IMG/VR virus record: IMGVR_UViG_2667527789_000020
Location: 1 to 19,197 of that record
Length of the DNA stretch: 19,197 bases
Origin: a virus
Lineage: Duplodnaviria; Heunggongvirae; Uroviricota; Caudoviricetes
Direction: 5' to 3' (one strand)
Under the pieces are notes generated by a model. The model did not search any database. It worked only from the letters and a program-made list of their open reading frames with translations, and was not told the origin of the DNA. Made by a program: the position numbers and the translations under genes. Every line of letters begins with the position of its first letter. Positions within the stretch are counted from its first letter, which is position 1. Shown in pieces: positions 1,307 to 17,708 of this stretch.

Positions 1307-3745
1307 TTAAAAATCAGCCTGATTCGGGAACAGTTTTTGCCAGATAGCTGAAACGTATTTTGCCTGGTAACGCGCATCGTGCAGGGCATTATGGCGTTCA
1401 CCCTCAAATGTGATGACACTTCGAGCATCGAAATCCATCACCAGCCCCAGGGCAACAATCGTTCTTACATCACGATCATTGGTGTAACGCCACGGGCAGG
1501 GGATCTCCTGCCGTTCATATGAACGGCGTAAAATCACGTTGTCGAAGTTGGCTCCATTTCCCCAGACCTGAACAAAAAACTCACCGGAGTTTTCGTCTAT
1601 AAATTCCCGTAATTGTAAAAGCGCATCATCAAGCGGTATTCGATCAGCTAAAATGGCGGCACGGGCTTCGCCAGAGCGTTGAAGCCACCATTCGATGGTG
1701 CTTATGTCTACAGTGCCGCCACATGTACCCATATCAATTATTTTGCTGAATTCAGGCCCCTGCTCTCCGGTTTGTGGATCGAAAAATACAGCGCCTATTG
1801 AGGCTATTGGTGCGTCAGGATTTTTGCCCATTGTTTCAAGGTCAATCATCAGATGGTGCCACAACCTGCTGGTGGATGTGATTTCACGATGACCGTTCAC
1901 CTTAATTAAGGGATTTGCTGTCTCGCCTGTTTCATTATTGCCATTGGCATGTTGATCGCCTTCGGTGCACTCCTTGTTCGGGAGTCCGGCACTTTCCATT
2001 TCCTCCGGATCTTTTTCCCGGGCTTCATCCTGGCTTTCTTCGTTGAATGTCTCCTGGTAGGTTGCGTCCCCCATCACTGCGCCACAATCAGGGCAGTTAC
2101 CACCACCAGTCTGATTGCATGCGGTACAAACTTTTTCCTCTTCCTGTTGCACTACTGGTTCAGGTTGTTTCGTTTCTGGCTCGTTTTGTAACGCATTTGG
2201 GCTGTTTTGTTCCGCTTTCTGACCGTTCTGTTCCGTTTCTTGCTGGTTCTGGTTCACAGAATCGCAGGTTTCAATCCCCTTAACCCATTTCGAATCATTC
2301 GGGTCGCTAATCCCTTCAACAAACTCACCACGAGAAGCGGCAAGCAATTTGTCGGCATCTGGTCGACTGATGTCTGCTGCCTCCATAATTTTATTTACTT
2401 CTTCAGCAGTAACTTTTACCTGTGACTTGTCATCCAGCGGCTGCGGGTCCTGATGATGTTCAACTGTATCCGCTGCCATTGTTTCAGCCGTTGCCTGTTC
2501 ATCTGCCATTGCGCCAGATGGTTGCGGGTTTTCTTCATCATTTTTTTCTTCTTCTGTTTTGCACTCAGCAGCCAGTCCGCCGTTAATTTCTTCCAGGATA
2601 TCTTTTTCCGGTGTATGCCGGGCAGCCATGAGCGTTTCAGCTGTGGGATTCTCGTGATCAGTTTCTGTCAGGTTGGCATTGATATACCCCTGAAGGCGTC
2701 CCGGGTAGTGATAAAACTCAGGGTGGGCGCTCCGGATAAGTGCAAAAATAGCTGCGCGGGAATAGTCCAGGATACCAGGGGTTGCGCGAAGTGCTGCGGA
2801 CCATTCCCTGAACGGACTTTCTTTTTTCAGGACGATTTCTTTTGCGCGACGATAAACGCTCACGGGTATTTCATAAATATTAAAATCCATCGGAAGTGTG
2901 GCTGCTGCAGCCTCCACATCCAGAGTATCGAGGGTGTGTACTAAGTCAGGATTACGATCGGTTTTATTTCCGCCACCGGCATTTGCACCGGAAGCCGTGC
3001 GGGTGATGCGAGAAACACGATTTCCTTTCATCCACTCTTTTGTCAGCAGACCTCGATCGGTATAGTCAGCGTCCAGGTATGCTTCGAAAAAAGCAGTCAT
3101 TAACCCCAGACTGGAATTAACGGGATTAGGGAAAACTTTGTCTGTGTCGCGTACCAGTTTGTGAAGGTCGCGAATCTCCAGCGGGTCGAGCAGCTTTGTG
3201 TTGTGGGAAATAGCCAGGGTAGTAACAGCCGGCAGTTCTTCAGCTCGTGCGATATGTAATGCCTGAAGTTCTTCCCGTGAAACGTGCGTTACCGGTTTTT
3301 CGCTGCCATGTTGCGCAAGCCAGCGAATGGGCAGTTCCTGACCGGAAATCGGCAGGAGCATATTATCCTCAATCTCAGCCATGTCTTCGCCATTGACGTT
3401 GGTATTGTCAGTGCTGGCTGGTTTGTCCTGAACTGAGGGGGAAGGCGCTATAAATATCATTGTGATGCCATCTTCCCCGCCTTTTTCATAGCGGTTGCAG
3501 AATTCGGTATCAAACACGCCTTCCGGTGGAAGGTCATTCACAACGGGGAAATGGACGCGGACAGGTTTTTTGAAATCATCAGCGTCGTAGCCTGCCTCGT
3601 CCATTGCAACAACGCACCGTGAGATGGCAACAGATAATTTTTTTGCTGTAGTCCAGTAAAAACCCCCTTTAATCCCAAGGCGTTTTCTGACCTTGTCATT
3701 TTTTGCTTCGCAATATAGCGAAAATTCTTCTTTATCAGTGCTCAT
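1307..3745 (-). CDS. Large prophage exonuclease (812 aa): RecE-N-terminal-like region, CxxC-x8-CxxC zinc ribbon, C-terminal DEDDh (DnaQ-like) 3'-5' exonuclease domain
   Basis: ATG at 3745 preceded by GAGG with 7-nt spacer. C-terminal domain shows Exo I (MIDLETMG), Exo II (VWGNGANFDNVIL) and Exo III (HNALHDARYQAKY) motifs. Central Cys cluster CTACNQTGGGNCPDCG. N-terminal part (NTNVNGEDM.EIE.NMLLPISGQELPIRWLAQHGSEKPVTHVSR) resembles, from memory, the dispensable N-terminal region of Rac RecE. Confidence 0.8.
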   Translation of the reverse strand: MSTDKEEFSLYCEAKNDKVRKRLGIKGGFYWTTAKKLSVAISRCVVAMDEAGYDADDFKKPVRVHFPVVNDLPPEGVFDTEFCNRYEKGGEDGITMIFIAPSPSVQDKPASTDNTNVNGEDMAEIEDNMLLPISGQELPIRWLAQHGSEKPVTHVSREELQALHIARAEELPAVTTLAISHNTKLLDPLEIRDLHKLVRDTDKVFPNPVNSSLGLMTAFFEAYLDADYTDRGLLTKEWMKGNRVSRITRTASGANAGGGNKTDRNPDLVHTLDTLDVEAAAATLPMDFNIYEIPVSVYRRAKEIVLKKESPFREWSAALRATPGILDYSRAAIFALIRSAHPEFYHYPGRLQGYINANLTETDHENPTAETLMAARHTPEKDILEEINGGLAAECKTEEEKNDEENPQPSGAMADEQATAETMAADTVEHHQDPQPLDDKSQVKVTAEEVNKIMEAADISRPDADKLLAASRGEFVEGISDPNDSKWVKGIETCDSVNQNQQETEQNGQKAEQNSPNALQNEPETKQPEPVVQQEEEKVCTACNQTGGGNCPDCGAVMGDATYQETFNEESQDEAREKDPEEMESAGLPNKECTEGDQHANGNNETGETANPLIKVNGHREITSTSRLWHHLMIDLETMGKNPDAPIASIGAVFFDPQTGEQGPEFSKIIDMGTCGGTVDISTIEWWLQRSGEARAAILADRIPLDDALLQLREFIDENSGEFFVQVWGNGANFDNVILRRSYERQEIPCPWRYTNDRDVRTIVALGLVMDFDARSVITFEGERHNALHDARYQAKYVSAIWQKLFPNQADF

Positions 3746-3837
3746 GGATAAACCTCATAACTATTTTAAGGTTGTACGAACCCCTGCCATTGCTGGCATG
3801 CTTAATCAACGGGTATGGCGTTAATATGGCTGGTGGA

Positions 3838-4026
3838 TTATCCAGCCGGTATTTCGTTATTCAGGTACAGCGATACTTTTTTTAACGGGAGGCATTCGCC
3901 AGAAATTTTTTGCTCGTCTCTTGCACGGAGGCATGATTCTTTACTGGCATAAATTCCGGTAATCACATTCTGTGGCTCACCCGTTATAAGAAAAACAGTC
4001 ATTACCAGTGCAAATGCAGAAGTCAC
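3838..4026 (-). CDS. Small hypothetical protein with a hydrophobic N-terminal segment (YdfD-like position after dicB)
   Basis: GTG at 4026 overlaps the dicB-like stop (GTGA); alternative in-frame ATG at 4002. Hydrophobic stretch FALVMTVFLITG. Same strand and tightly coupled within the leftward operon. Identity unknown. Confidence 0.35.
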   Translation of the reverse strand: MTSAFALVMTVFLITGEPQNVITGIYASKESCLRARDEQKISGECLPLKKVSLYLNNEIPAG

Positions 4027-4211
4027 TGCTGCCCCCCGAAAATACCAAGTTTAAGAAGGGCAATTCTGGAGAGTATGGAATTATCATTGAGAAGATAAGG
4101 CTCATATTTTCTCATCTTAATGGCATCTTCAGTAAACTCCCGGTTACTGAGCAGAATACCAATATCAAAACACCCTTCAGACGTATTAACGTTTGGTAAT
4201 AACGTTTCCAT
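4023..4211 (-). CDS. dicB: Cell-division inhibitor DicB homolog (62 aa)
   Basis: METLLPNVNTSEGCFDIGILLSNREFTEDAI... closely matches the N-terminal half of E. coli Qin DicB as I recall it (MKTLLPNVNTSEGCFEIG...FTEDAI), and the length is identical. ATG at 4211 preceded by GAGGA with a 7-nt spacer. Confidence 0.75.
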   Translation of the reverse strand: METLLPNVNTSEGCFDIGILLSNREFTEDAIKMRKYEPYLLNDNSILSRIALLKLGIFGGQQ

Positions 4212-4221
4212 TATCGCGTCC

Positions 4222-4806
4222 TCAACAATGAATTTTTAGTAATTGCTCCACAGTCATATTTTTAATTGCGCTCCGGTTTACAAGAGTCCAGCCTTGTTTC
4301 TCCAGATAAAACTGGAAGGTATCCAGGGTGCAGACCATTGCACCATCAGGAACGGTTTCAGTGAATTTGATATTGCCGTGTTCGTCGAGACGGATAACCA
4401 GGGTACGTCCGTCCCCGTGAATCATTTTGTCGGGAGACGGGGCGTTATTCTGGCGCAGTTCTTTCTCCATGCGATCGAACTCAGCGATGTAGGCTTCTTT
4501 AAATGCAGCGGCTTTTTTGCCGGTGAAGCCCATCACCAGGAAAACGAAGCCGTTTTTGGTGATTTGGTACATAGGGAGTTTGCGCCCGGTTGAGTCGGTA
4601 TATTCACTGGGCGAAAAATTTCGCTCAGTGAATTCTGCTGAACAGTCTAGACGTGAAATTTTTGCCAGTACATCTTTGTGTGGTTTCCGGAAATACTCGG
4701 CAACAGCTAAAGAGGATGTAACAGCACGCCCATTGGCGATAGTAATTTCAGGGTGAGAAAGGGCAGGGATAGTAGCCATGATGGCAGCCTCCATGATGAA
4801 TTTCAT
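4222..4806 (-). CDS. Rha-family phage regulatory protein (antirepressor-like)
   Basis: Core ITIANGRAVTSSLAVAEYFRKPHKDVLAKISRL...MYQITKNGFVFLVMGFTGKKAAAFKEAYIAEF is typical of the Phage_pRha domain. The six-frame ORF extends to 5073 but the first ~90 codons are compositionally non-protein-like and contain a terminator-like hairpin. Likely start is ATG at 4806 (SD-like GGTGGTGAG upstream) or ATG at 4779 (GGAGG, 8-nt spacer). Confidence 0.7.
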   Translation of the reverse strand: MKFIMEAAIMATIPALSHPEITIANGRAVTSSLAVAEYFRKPHKDVLAKISRLDCSAEFTERNFSPSEYTDSTGRKLPMYQITKNGFVFLVMGFTGKKAAAFKEAYIAEFDRMEKELRQNNAPSPDKMIHGDGRTLVIRLDEHGNIKFTETVPDGAMVCTLDTFQFYLEKQGWTLVNRSAIKNMTVEQLLKIHC

Positions 4807-4943
4807 TAACTCACCACCGGAGGTAGCAATCTCATGGGTGGTGAGACGCACAGGGTTGCTACAACCGGTCATCATGGAACCCGGCCAGCCTTGCGGCTGC
4901 CCTGCACGCCCCACCATAATCTGAATGTGGCTGTGCATTACGC

Positions 4944-4968
4944 ATAAAAAAACCGCCTGAGCGCGGTT
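4944..4968 (-). terminator. Candidate Rho-independent terminator on the minus strand
   Basis: Minus-strand RNA would form AACCGC / GCGGTT stem (6 bp, 6-nt loop) followed by a 7-U run (plus-strand A7 at 4946-4952). Lies between the DicF-like element and the Rha start. Confidence 0.4.
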
Positions 4969-5264
4969 ATGCGCCATGATGAACATCGGGGTAGCAATCC
5001 CGGCACCCGCTTTATGAGGTGCAGGTGCACTATAATTCCACCCGTTCTGGTTTTCAATAGCTACATTCAACATTTTCTCTTACCTTTCATCACCGAAGTG
5101 AACTTTGTCGATGCAGTGCCTGGTGCCTCCAGGTGACGTTAACCAGTTAACAATTAACGCCGGAATACAGAAGTATGCCCGTTACGCCCCGTAAAAGACC
5201 ACTTTACGGTTTTAACTGTTCCGCGTGCGCTTAGCCGCATTCACCGCATCACAAAATTCACTTT

Positions 5265-12912: not shown

Positions 12913-13138
12913 GCTGGCCTGAGGCCTTCTCAAATGTTGGTATTGCAATGGCGCTGGTGGTGTATTCGATTTGCCGCTGGGGATAAAAACGGTTTGCGGG
13001 GAAAGAAGAGTTAAGTAGAATTGCTGCGGGTGCCTGAGGCTGTCTGCCTCAGGCATGAACACCAAAAGGCAGATAGAGAAAGCCCCAGTTAACATTACGC
13101 GTCCTGTAAGACGCTCAACATTAATCTGAGGCATATGG

Positions 13139-14263
13139 ATGCGGATGAAAGAATTAAATAAATTCAGAGTGATAGACCTCTTTTGTGGGGCAGGTGGATT
13201 ATCTTATGGTTTTCTTCATGGAGAGATGTCTGACTACTTTGAAAGTATCCTTGCTATTGATAATAATGCTGCAGCTATAAATACCTACAATGCCAATTTT
13301 GGTTTGCATGGAGTTCAGGCAAATATTGAGGAGTGGGCATCCAGCAATACTGTTCCTGAGGCTGATGTGGTCATAGGTGGCCCCCCGTGTCAGGGATTCA
13401 GTTTATTGAATAAGAATCGTTATGGTGATCACCGAAGAGCATTGTGGGAGCCTTATATGGATGTCATTGAGCGTTCAAGGGCTTGCATGTTCGTCATGGA
13501 AAATGTCCCCGGATTGCTGATAAGCGATGAGTTTGCGGACATTACGTTTAGAGCGAAATCCATGGGCTTTATTCTGCTTAATCCAATGGTGTTGAATACT
13601 GCTGACTATGGAGTACCTCAGACAAGAAAACGAACGATAGCAATCGGTATCAAACGAGAACTCTTCGATGAGCATAGTATTCCGGCGTTCCCGCCAGCAC
13701 CAACGCATCGTTCCCCTGATAAGGATGTCGCTTTGCCTGAATGGGTCTGTACGCGTGATGCAATTGGTGACTTACCTGCTCCTGTTGGAACTGATATTCG
13801 TAATGAACTTCCTCCGCTGAACTTACATTTTGGGCGTAATCCCACACCTGTTTCTCTGGAGCGATATAAAGCGGTTCCACCAGGAGGTAACCGTTTCGAT
13901 TTACAGAAAAAAAGACCTGATATAACCCCGGCGTGCTGGCTAAAAAAGAAATCTGGAGGGACCGATTTGTTTGGACGTCTGTGGTGGGACAGACCTTCAG
14001 TAACGATTCGTACTGAGTTTTTCAAACCGGAGAAAGGGCGATATTTACATCCGGAAGAGGATCGGCCAATAACTCATCGTGAGGCAGCGAGATTAATGTC
14101 TTTTCCTGATAATTTCATTTTTACCGGTTCAAAAACTGAGATTGCAAAGCAGATCGGGAATGCTGTTCCACCGCTATTTGCGGCAAAAATCGCACAATAT
14201 GTGTATGGAGTTTTGCAGGGACGGTATAAGAATAACATCAGTAAGAATAGTCAAGCAGCCTGA
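13139..14263 (+). CDS. DNA (cytosine-5)-methyltransferase, modification subunit of a Type II R-M system (374 aa)
   Basis: Motif I DLFCGAGG (FxGxGG), motif IV GGPPCQGFS (catalytic PC), motif VI ENV, motif X-like QIGNAVPPLFAAKIA. ATG preceded by GAGG with a 7-nt spacer. Visibly more AT-rich than the flanking phage genes. Confidence 0.9.
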   Translation: MRMKELNKFRVIDLFCGAGGLSYGFLHGEMSDYFESILAIDNNAAAINTYNANFGLHGVQANIEEWASSNTVPEADVVIGGPPCQGFSLLNKNRYGDHRRALWEPYMDVIERSRACMFVMENVPGLLISDEFADITFRAKSMGFILLNPMVLNTADYGVPQTRKRTIAIGIKRELFDEHSIPAFPPAPTHRSPDKDVALPEWVCTRDAIGDLPAPVGTDIRNELPPLNLHFGRNPTPVSLERYKAVPPGGNRFDLQKKRPDITPACWLKKKSGGTDLFGRLWWDRPSVTIRTEFFKPEKGRYLHPEEDRPITHREAARLMSFPDNFIFTGSKTEIAKQIGNAVPPLFAAKIAQYVYGVLQGRYKNNISKNSQAA

Positions 14264-16657: not shown

Positions 16658-17026
16658 ATGACCGAGCGCATAGAATTTGTTTTGCCTTACCCGCCGACGG
16701 TGAACACTTACTGGCGACGCCGTGGCAGCACATATTTTGTATCAAAATCCGGGGAGCGTTATCGCCGGGCAGTGGCACTTATTGTTCGCCAGCAGCAGTT
16801 GAAATTAAGCCTGTCCGGACGGCTGGCAATAAAAATTATTGCAGAACCACCGGATAAGCGCCGCCGTGACCTGGACAATATTCTGAAAGCACCGCTGGAT
16901 GCGCTGACGCACGCGGGGTTGTTAATGGACGATGAACAGTTTGATGAAATCAATATTGTACGTGGTCAGCCAGTATCTGGTGGACGGCTGGAAATAAGAA
17001 TTACAGAGGTGGGTGTGCATGAATAA
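16658..17026 (+). CDS. rusA: Holliday junction resolvase RusA (crossover junction endodeoxyribonuclease), 122 aa
   Basis: LPYPPTVNTYWRRRG...DKRRRDLDNILKAPLDALTHAGLLMDDEQ...GGRLEIRITEVG matches E. coli RusA (LPWPPSNNRYYR...[22 protein letters not shown]...GGRLELTITEMG), including the catalytic Asp cluster. Confidence 0.9.
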   Translation: MTERIEFVLPYPPTVNTYWRRRGSTYFVSKSGERYRRAVALIVRQQQLKLSLSGRLAIKIIAEPPDKRRRDLDNILKAPLDALTHAGLLMDDEQFDEINIVRGQPVSGGRLEIRITEVGVHE

Positions 17027-17708
17027 CCAGTATTTACAGTTTGTTCGTGAGCAACTCATGATTGCCACTGCAGATCTCAGTGGGTCGACAAAAGGCCAGC
17101 TGGAAGCCTGGCAGGAAAATGCCCTGTTCGATACAGGGCGTTACAGACGCAAAAAAATTCGTTACCGCGATGAGGTAACCGGAAAAATGATCACGCGGGA
17201 TAATCCCCCGATCCAGGGTAAACAATCACTGGCGAAAGGCTCATCAATTGCGCTGGTCAGTCCTGTTGAGTTTGCAACATCATCGTGGCGGCGTGCCCTT
17301 CTGGAACTGGAAGAACATCAGAAGGCGTGGTTGTTGTGGTGTTATGGCGGAAACATTTGCTGGGAGCATCAGATCGCGATAACGCAGTGGGTGTGGAGTG
17401 AATTTAAAACTCAGTCCGGCTCCAGAAAAATTGCAGTGAAAACGCTGGAGCGTGTGAAGAAGTTGATCTGGCTGGCGGCACAGGATGTCAGAGGATGGGT
17501 TACCGGGTGTGAGGTCTACCAGAGACAGGAGCTTGCCAGACTGTGTGGAGTTAAGCCTGATAACTGGAGCCATAATTATGCGAACTACTGGCGTGAGATG
17601 TGCGATATTTTTAAGCGTCTCGATAGAGAATCCTTGATTTGCTCCGTGAAAATAAGAGCGCAACAAAAAGCGACCTTTTCACGACGAGATATTGCAAAAG
17701 TCAATTAA
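17019..17708 (+). CDS. Putative late-gene antitermination protein Q (Qin/QuuQ-like), 229 aa
   Basis: ATG at 17019 overlaps the rusA stop (the six-frame ORF starts at GTG 17013). Position immediately after rusA and immediately upstream of a strong terminator is the canonical Q location. Family assignment is by position and size, not by recognised motifs. Confidence 0.55.
   Translation: MNNQYLQFVREQLMIATADLSGSTKGQLEAWQENALFDTGRYRRKKIRYRDEVTGKMITRDNPPIQGKQSLAKGSSIALVSPVEFATSSWRRALLELEEHQKAWLLWCYGGNICWEHQIAITQWVWSEFKTQSGSRKIAVKTLERVKKLIWLAAQDVRGWVTGCEVYQRQELARLCGVKPDNWSHNYANYWREMCDIFKRLDRESLICSVKIRAQQKATFSRRDIAKVN

Follow-up and report, generated by a model that had tools for sequence, protein, structure and literature searches.

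The window, a stretch of 19,197 nucleotides, derives from a lambdoid, Qin/PPompW-like prophage of E. coli. An initial annotation, made from the sequence alone, had drawn attention to a small ORF directly after dicB, overlapping it by GTGA and occupying the position that ydfD has in Qin, and had proposed that it encodes a toxic or lysis peptide with a hydrophobic N terminus. The ORF exists as described: it lies at 3838..4026 on the minus strand, begins with GTG, and encodes a protein of 62 amino acids, MTSAFALVMTVFLITGEPQNVITGIYASKESCLRARDEQKISGECLPLKKVSLYLNNEIPAG. The features of the locus on which our analysis draws are as follows.

3838..4026, minus strand: ydfD-family CDS (DUF1482), 62 amino acids, GTG start codon and TAA stop codon
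4023..4211, minus strand: dicB, the gene for a cell division inhibitor and upstream partner of ydfD, assigned by Pfam, NCBIfam, and identity to K-12
4023..4026, minus strand: GTGA start/stop overlap of dicB and ydfD, read from the sequence
4032..4037, minus strand: G run, GGGGGG, within the 3' end of dicB, a putative Shine-Dalgarno-like element noted in the sequence
3877..3883, minus strand: A7 homopolymer within ydfD, spanning the Lys49-Lys50 codons in the sequence
3827..3848, minus strand: inverted repeat (hairpin) with arms CCGGCTGG and CCAGCC and a loop that contains the stop codon of ydfD
1307..3745, minus strand: RecE-like exonuclease gene, 812 amino acids, downstream in the same operon, with Pfam matches to Exonuc_VIII (118.9 bits) and Rv2179c-like (211.5 bits)
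4222..5073, minus strand: ORF annotated by PGAP as a Rha-family regulator, 283 amino acids, with Pfam matches to Phage_pRha and Phage_ASH

The dicB-ydfD pair and its genomic setting

The upstream ORF at 4023..4211 is DicB: it matched Pfam PF05358 with 122.5 bits and the NCBIfam DicB model with 109.2 bits (cutoff, 100), and it shares 60% identity with K-12 DicB. The overlap reported between the two genes is real, with the GTG start codon of ydfD at 4026..4024 and the TGA stop codon of dicB at 4025..4023, and an overlap of 4 nt, as either ATGA or GTGA, is kept in all 10 related loci examined. The G6 run (4037..4032) is positioned 5 nt upstream of the ydfD GTG; GGAG- or AGGA-type motifs precede the ydfD start at a matching distance in 10 of 10 related loci. 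Since two relatives (L004 and L013) carry ATG at the very codon at which the window has GTG, the position of the ydfD start codon can be regarded as fixed.

The dicB-ydfD pair sits in the early-left, repressor-controlled operon of the prophage and not in a late lysis cassette. The order of genes, which runs repressor, small ORFs, either dicF or a Rha module, dicB, ydfD, RecE-like exonuclease, xis, and int, is common to Qin, E. coli N51, the complete phage Tritos, PPompW prophages, and other E. coli strains. A RecE-like neighbor also follows ydfD in Qin (where it is the pseudogene ydfE), Tritos, PPompW, and a Klebsiella phage. That slot of the early operon, ahead of exonuclease VIII and RecT, is occupied by a DUF1482 gene in the Klebsiella phage ST16-OXA48phi5.1 (L014, 3891-4192), where a 37-aa ORF unrelated to DicB precedes the DUF1482 gene with a 4-nt overlap. 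Because the partner in the Klebsiella phage is not related to DicB, the coupling of ydfD to a small upstream gene is older than its partnership with DicB.

Upstream of dicB, a P1/Gifsy-like Rha/C4/isrK module takes the place held in Qin by dicF, and the Rha ORF and dicB are separated by 10 nt. Rfam detected a C4 antisense RNA at 4834-4921 (minus strand, 77.9 bits) and isrK at 4946-5022 (minus strand, 64.7 bits), both of them within the 5' third of the Rha ORF; the stretch that holds them is the one that matches Phage_ASH. The isrK element is bracketed by a promoter-like site (5057..5029) and by a hairpin followed by a T run (4968..4951). It is conceivable that the "Ash" portion represents RNA genes and not protein, and that the true start of Rha may be an internal Met. 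Elsewhere in the prophage, a hok/sok module is indicated by a match to the sok antitoxin RNA at 13028-13208 (plus strand; 61 bits, with a gathering score of 59), and the homologous locus of E. coli N51 carries an annotated Hok/Gef gene.

Comparison of the window (3838-4211) with loci L001 and L003 to L013 revealed two types of dicB-ydfD cassette that have co-diverged. YdfD of the Qin type is 63 amino acids long and ends ...PAGL, whereas the window type has 62 amino acids and ends ...PAG; chimeric proteins that join an N-terminal half of the latter type (type B) to a C-terminal half of the Qin type also occur (P0087 and P0091). The Pro-Ala-Gly codons form the left arm of the stop codon hairpin, which is conserved in four type-B loci (L004, L010, L011, and L013) and absent from K-12-type loci. 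The 68-nt stretch containing this hairpin had a folding energy of about -12 to -15 kcal/mol in RNAfold. It has no T run on the coding strand, and a terminator after ydfD was not called. Between ydfD and the exonuclease gene, the spacer contains a palindrome, TGCCAGCAATGGCA (3785-3798, minus strand), which is conserved, or nearly so, in both cassette types despite diverged flanks, one base of its left arm differing in L005 and L006; a function in processing or regulation is conceivable.

The A7 run within ydfD is likely a hotspot for slippage. Relatives with an extra Lys at this run were found (P0021, 139 contigs), and one ydfD copy, in E. coli JNE132847 (L012), is annotated as frameshifted. 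It is conceivable that slippage at this run switches a toxic gene on and off.

Family membership and evidence for a gene

The 62-aa protein matched Pfam DUF1482 (PF07358) with 58.4 bits (cutoff, 25), its residues 4 to 61 corresponding to positions 1 to 57 of the 57-position model, and PHROG 1092 with 114 bits over positions 1 to 62 of 63; no NCBIfam model matches the ORF. With K-12 YdfD (b1576) it aligned without gaps over 62 amino acids, at 48% identity and an E value of 3e-22. The earlier placement of the ORF at the ydfD position of Qin was thereby borne out, and the ORF is itself a ydfD homolog, which every sequence criterion that we applied assigns to the DUF1482/YdfD family. Residue conservation was judged on alignments of 19, 20, and 37 sequences. 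All of the residues that are invariant or nearly invariant in the family (F5, A6, L7, T10, V11, G16, C32, E38, Q39, C45, and P47) are present in the window protein, and C32 and C45 are the sole columns that are invariant in all 37 aligned sequences.

K-12 YdfD, which is annotated as a "lysis protein" of Qin, resembles the window protein in its size (63 versus 62 amino acids), DUF1482 membership, and gap-free alignment, in the FALVxTV N terminus, the G-E-P turn, the Cys pair, and the EQK and G-x-C-x-P motifs, as well as in the 4-nt overlap with dicB and the RecE-like gene downstream. The two proteins differ at 52% of residues, and the C-terminal part has a net charge of 0 in the window protein but -4 in K-12. 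The loci differ too: dicF lies upstream in K-12, in contrast to Rha/C4/isrK in the window, and the stop codon hairpin belongs to the window type only. A second relative in K-12 is YebW (b1837), a chromosomal DUF1482 paralog of similar size with a FALV start and the Cys pair, and with 30% identity over 47 residues. Unlike ydfD, yebW is found outside a prophage, in the context yebV-yebW-pphA and not beside dicB, and no phenotype has been reported for it.

Since an exhaustive phmmer search against 1.84 billion representatives of clusters at 50% identity returned just 31 with E values of 1e-3 or lower, DUF1482/YdfD is a small family. Nearly all of these matches are ~45 to 84 amino acids long, with three longer outliers. 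More distant DUF1482 members are found in Klebsiella phages. In a collection with one genome per species, scanned with two peptide patterns that are conserved in a narrow alignment of Escherichia type, six loci were confirmed, all of them from Escherichia except one on a suspect contig from a metagenome-assembled genome (MAG). This 22.9-kb contig (L006) was binned as a Veillonella parvula MAG and bears a K-12-type dicB-ydfD pair; the contig almost certainly comes from an Escherichia prophage and was mis-binned. We also noted that P0108, a 1031-aa Cys-rich repeat protein with a signal-peptide-like N terminus, matches residues 15 to 45 of YdfD six times (total E value, 2.5e-9), with the common motif TGxP...GI[FY]xSxExCL. 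The match may reflect remote homology of a hairpin-helix unit, or else a score inflated by the repeats.

The size of the ORF is no proof of a gene, since 91 ORFs of 55 or more amino acids are present in the window; what lifts it above chance is the combination of homology (Pfam), purifying selection, and conserved synteny. Nei-Gojobori dN/dS values for the window ydfD against four members of its subfamily were 0.15 to 0.29, and those for dicB were similar. Against the K-12 type the values were 0.3 to 0.4 with dS saturated, and the dicB range matched. Variable sites in ydfD were distributed 8/8/18 over codon positions 1, 2, and 3. Overlapping plus-strand ORFs at 3703..3885, 3815..3952, and 4008..4199 were rejected, as selection acts in the minus-strand frame. 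An identical CDS is present in E. coli N51 (WP_000199478.1, annotated as a "DUF1482 family protein"), in which the 601-bp dicB-ydfD region (window 3700..4300) is 99.8% identical.

The initial annotation had named a lack of conservation in related prophages as counting against its proposal; the gene is, however, conserved. The 601-bp region was matched in 4285 of 5426 complete E. coli genomes, with at least 80% coverage in 1146 of the 5426, and relatives of the window protein form 104 clusters at 90% identity, some of them present on hundreds of contigs; dN/dS lies well below 1. That the ORF might be a chance reading frame or a dead remnant, as the 91 ORFs in the window and the frameshifting of some copies elsewhere at the A run could suggest, has practically no probability in view of the Pfam and PHROG matches, dN/dS values of 0.15 to 0.3 with an excess of third-position changes, the conserved start, Shine-Dalgarno-like motif, and overlap, and the carriage of the gene by viable phages. 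The ORF represents a genuine and conserved gene of the prophage, under purifying selection and with its synteny kept. Because purifying selection acts on the 62-aa ...PAG subfamily, this subfamily must do something.

Function of YdfD in K-12 and in the window

Over-expression of ydfD from K-12 lyses almost all cells, and co-expression of DicB or SulA prevents this, indicating that lysis depends on cell division (PMC8835842). K-12 YdfD pulls down IspG and binds it with a Kd of 18 uM, and cells expressing YdfD are rescued by over-expression of ispG or by HMBPP (PMC8835842). Deletion of 1, 2, or 5 residues from either end, as well as the N1A and L63A changes, abolished lethality on plates; lysis requires the C-terminal domain, and binding to IspG is retained in Cys mutants (PMC8835842). 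The IspG mechanism comes from one laboratory and is based on a modest Kd, with no enzyme inhibition assay (PMC8835842), whereas the toxicity of YdfD has been confirmed independently (PMC9782134). The original report of lysis is that of Masuda et al. 2016, as cited in PMC8835842, PMC10448788, and PMC9782134. In K-12, ydfD is carried on the DicA-repressed ydfABC-dicF-dicB-ydfD transcript (PMC10448788).

The proposal of a candidate lysis peptide is supported because the ORF is a homolog of K-12 YdfD, an experimentally shown lysis protein (PMC8835842); the membrane mechanism that had been attached to the proposal is not supported by the analysis of the N terminus given below. By analogy, we infer that the window allele, at 48% identity, would be toxic and would act like K-12 YdfD with respect to both lysis and IspG. 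This extrapolation is weakened by the level of identity and by the termini. The window allele, which also differs in its GTG start, has Thr2 where K-12 has Asn2, and it ends at Gly62 with no terminal Leu and hence no equivalent of Leu63. The ...PAG ending is found in ~60 of ~73 full-length matches (at least 60 amino acids), and the requirement for intact termini in K-12 is a functional determinant of one allele and no criterion of family membership.

We think it probable that the gene is the ydfD of a Qin/PPompW-like prophage, the second cistron of a coupled dicB-ydfD pair, and that its product acts as a host enzyme binder and lysis protein masked by DicB. When made in dividing cells that do not contain enough DicB, the product would, in this model, probably bind a cytoplasmic host enzyme. 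By analogy with the report for K-12, this enzyme would probably be IspG, of the MEP isoprenoid pathway. With IspG bound, the lipid carrier for wall synthesis would run short, leading to lysis at division, and co-translated DicB, by blocking division, would mask the lytic effect.

A different reading, which we regard as possible but doubtful, is that ydfD is an early accessory gene whose natural role is not lysis, the latter being an artefact of over-expression; it could serve in host takeover, for example by throttling isoprenoid or envelope synthesis, or act on some other target. The location of the gene in the early-left operon, beside recombination genes and away from a late lysis cassette, is consistent with this possibility, as are the abolition of YdfD lysis by DicB co-expression and the fact that all lysis data come from ectopic over-expression. 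Furthermore, phage Tritos carries dicB-ydfD in addition to its own S holin, endolysin, and spanin-like gene downstream of Q. Judged on this related phage, ydfD is not the sole lysis function; the window itself ends at the Q antiterminator gene (17013..17708). Because DicB is always co-translated and related phages possess a separate holin/endolysin cassette, the natural job of YdfD may be in early host takeover. On the other hand, no alternative function has been demonstrated, and deletion of ydfD had a minimal effect on dicBF-mediated resistance to lambda (PMC6832061). A match in PADLOC, which has no model for YdfD or DicB, is likewise lacking.

Two groups of known phage proteins invite comparison with a DicB-masked lysis protein. 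Lambda Kil and Rac KilR share its niche, being small proteins encoded in a repressor-controlled early-left operon beside recombination genes and toxic when de-repressed. The targets of Kil and KilR, FtsZ and cell division, correspond to a DicB-like role and not to an action on isoprenoid synthesis, and we detected no homology between them and window YdfD. The single-gene lysis "protein antibiotics" (phiX174 E/MraY, Qbeta A2/MurA, and LysM/MurJ) cause division-dependent lysis via a blocked wall synthesis enzyme and without degrading the wall, as has been proposed for K-12 YdfD (PMC8835842). However, these proteins are expressed for lysis and are the sole lysis device of tiny ssDNA or ssRNA phages, whereas ydfD belongs to an early operon, and the lambdoid phages that carry it are also equipped with a holin and an endolysin. 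A profile search of PDB sequences and Foldseek revealed no sequence or fold relationship between the single-gene lysis proteins and window YdfD.

The N terminus and the predicted fold

The N terminus of the window protein is indeed hydrophobic, as had been noted: none of its first 16 residues is charged or strongly polar, and the 11-residue Kyte-Doolittle maximum is 2.8. Over 19 residues, the Kyte-Doolittle maximum of the protein is 1.39. The hydrophobic run extends for just 15 to 16 residues, less than the ~19 of a membrane-spanning helix, and is followed by the conserved G-E-P. Its conservation goes beyond hydrophobicity, since it is kept in sequence (FALVxTV). A Hessa-scale sum, a crude method that uses no position weighting, gave a best 19-residue value of +7.35 kcal/mol, compared with -4.70 kcal/mol for K-12 HokD under the same scoring.

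Two AlphaFold2 runs, with the 19- and 37-sequence alignments, yielded models of the isolated monomer with pLDDT values of 81.4 and 82.9 and pTM values of 0.64 and 0.65, respectively, the C-terminal 15 residues being of low confidence. In both models, a strand at residues 5 to 12 and a strand at 18 to 26 are followed by a helix at 29 to 39, a strand from 43 or 44 to 47, and a poorly defined tail. The protein is thus modeled as a beta-beta-alpha-beta mini-fold whose first strand is the hydrophobic N terminus, paired with residues 18 to 26. No PDB sequence was matched by a profile search at an E value of 1 or lower, and Foldseek identified no significant neighbor in the PDB (best E value, 0.96). 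Against the BFVD viral models, the best E value was 0.04, and all of the matches were uncharacterized small proteins, one of them labeled DUF1482.

Judging from these models, the conserved N terminus is most likely the first strand in a core composed of a beta-hairpin, an alpha-helix, and a beta-strand, and not a membrane-spanning helix. We consider a transmembrane helix of canonical form unlikely, whereas this segment may associate peripherally with the membrane or take part in an oligomer or target interface. The idea of a small membrane peptide is not supported, as the hydrophobic stretch falls short of the length of a canonical transmembrane helix, is conserved in sequence, and is modeled as a beta-strand. 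The mechanism published for K-12 YdfD, moreover, is inhibition of an enzyme and not damage to the membrane.

The same evidence makes it very unlikely that YdfD is a membrane-damaging toxin comparable to Hok, holins, or TisB, in which the N terminus, as a transmembrane helix, would depolarize or permeabilize the inner membrane. The uncharged, hydrophobic first 16 residues could be taken in this sense, and YdfD has been termed a "membrane lysis protein" (PMC9782134). Yet the run is short and abuts the conserved G-E-P, its Hessa-scale sum is +7.4 kcal/mol against -4.7 kcal/mol for HokD, specific residues within it (F5, A6, L7, T10, and V11) are conserved, unlike in a generic anchor, and both AlphaFold2 runs place it in a beta-strand. 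Moreover, lysis by K-12 YdfD needs the C-terminal domain, and a cytoplasmic enzyme or its product rescues the cells.

Still less credit, amounting to only the slightest chance, can be given to an exported periplasmic mini-protein held by a Cys32-Cys45 disulfide, with the N terminus serving as an uncleaved signal anchor. Such an arrangement would accommodate the observation that Cys32 and Cys45 are the only invariant columns across 37 sequences, and the weak, repeated match to the Cys-rich P0108 with its signal-peptide-like N terminus points in the same direction. However, the N terminus has neither a positively charged n-region nor a cleavage motif, its hydrophobic core is short and conserved in sequence, Cys mutants of K-12 YdfD still bind IspG, and the reported target is cytoplasmic.

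Returning to YdfD as a DicB-masked binder of a host enzyme, one can go further and picture the family as soluble beta-beta-alpha-beta mini-inhibitors whose first strand would be the protein-binding surface. The two co-diverged dicB-ydfD types would then be matched killer/masker pairs, and the ...PAG type may hit a target other than IspG or act differently. We offer this as a speculation that is rather unlikely to be correct.

RefSeq already contains this exact sequence, and the founding member of the family has been characterized. The correct label for the ORF is a YdfD-family (DUF1482), putative prophage lysis or host enzyme inhibitor protein, translationally coupled to DicB. YdfD is commonly described as a "membrane protein"; sequence conservation and structure prediction both speak against this. 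Finally, the widespread 62-aa allele differs exactly where K-12 YdfD is most sensitive, and it therefore constitutes a natural test of the IspG model.
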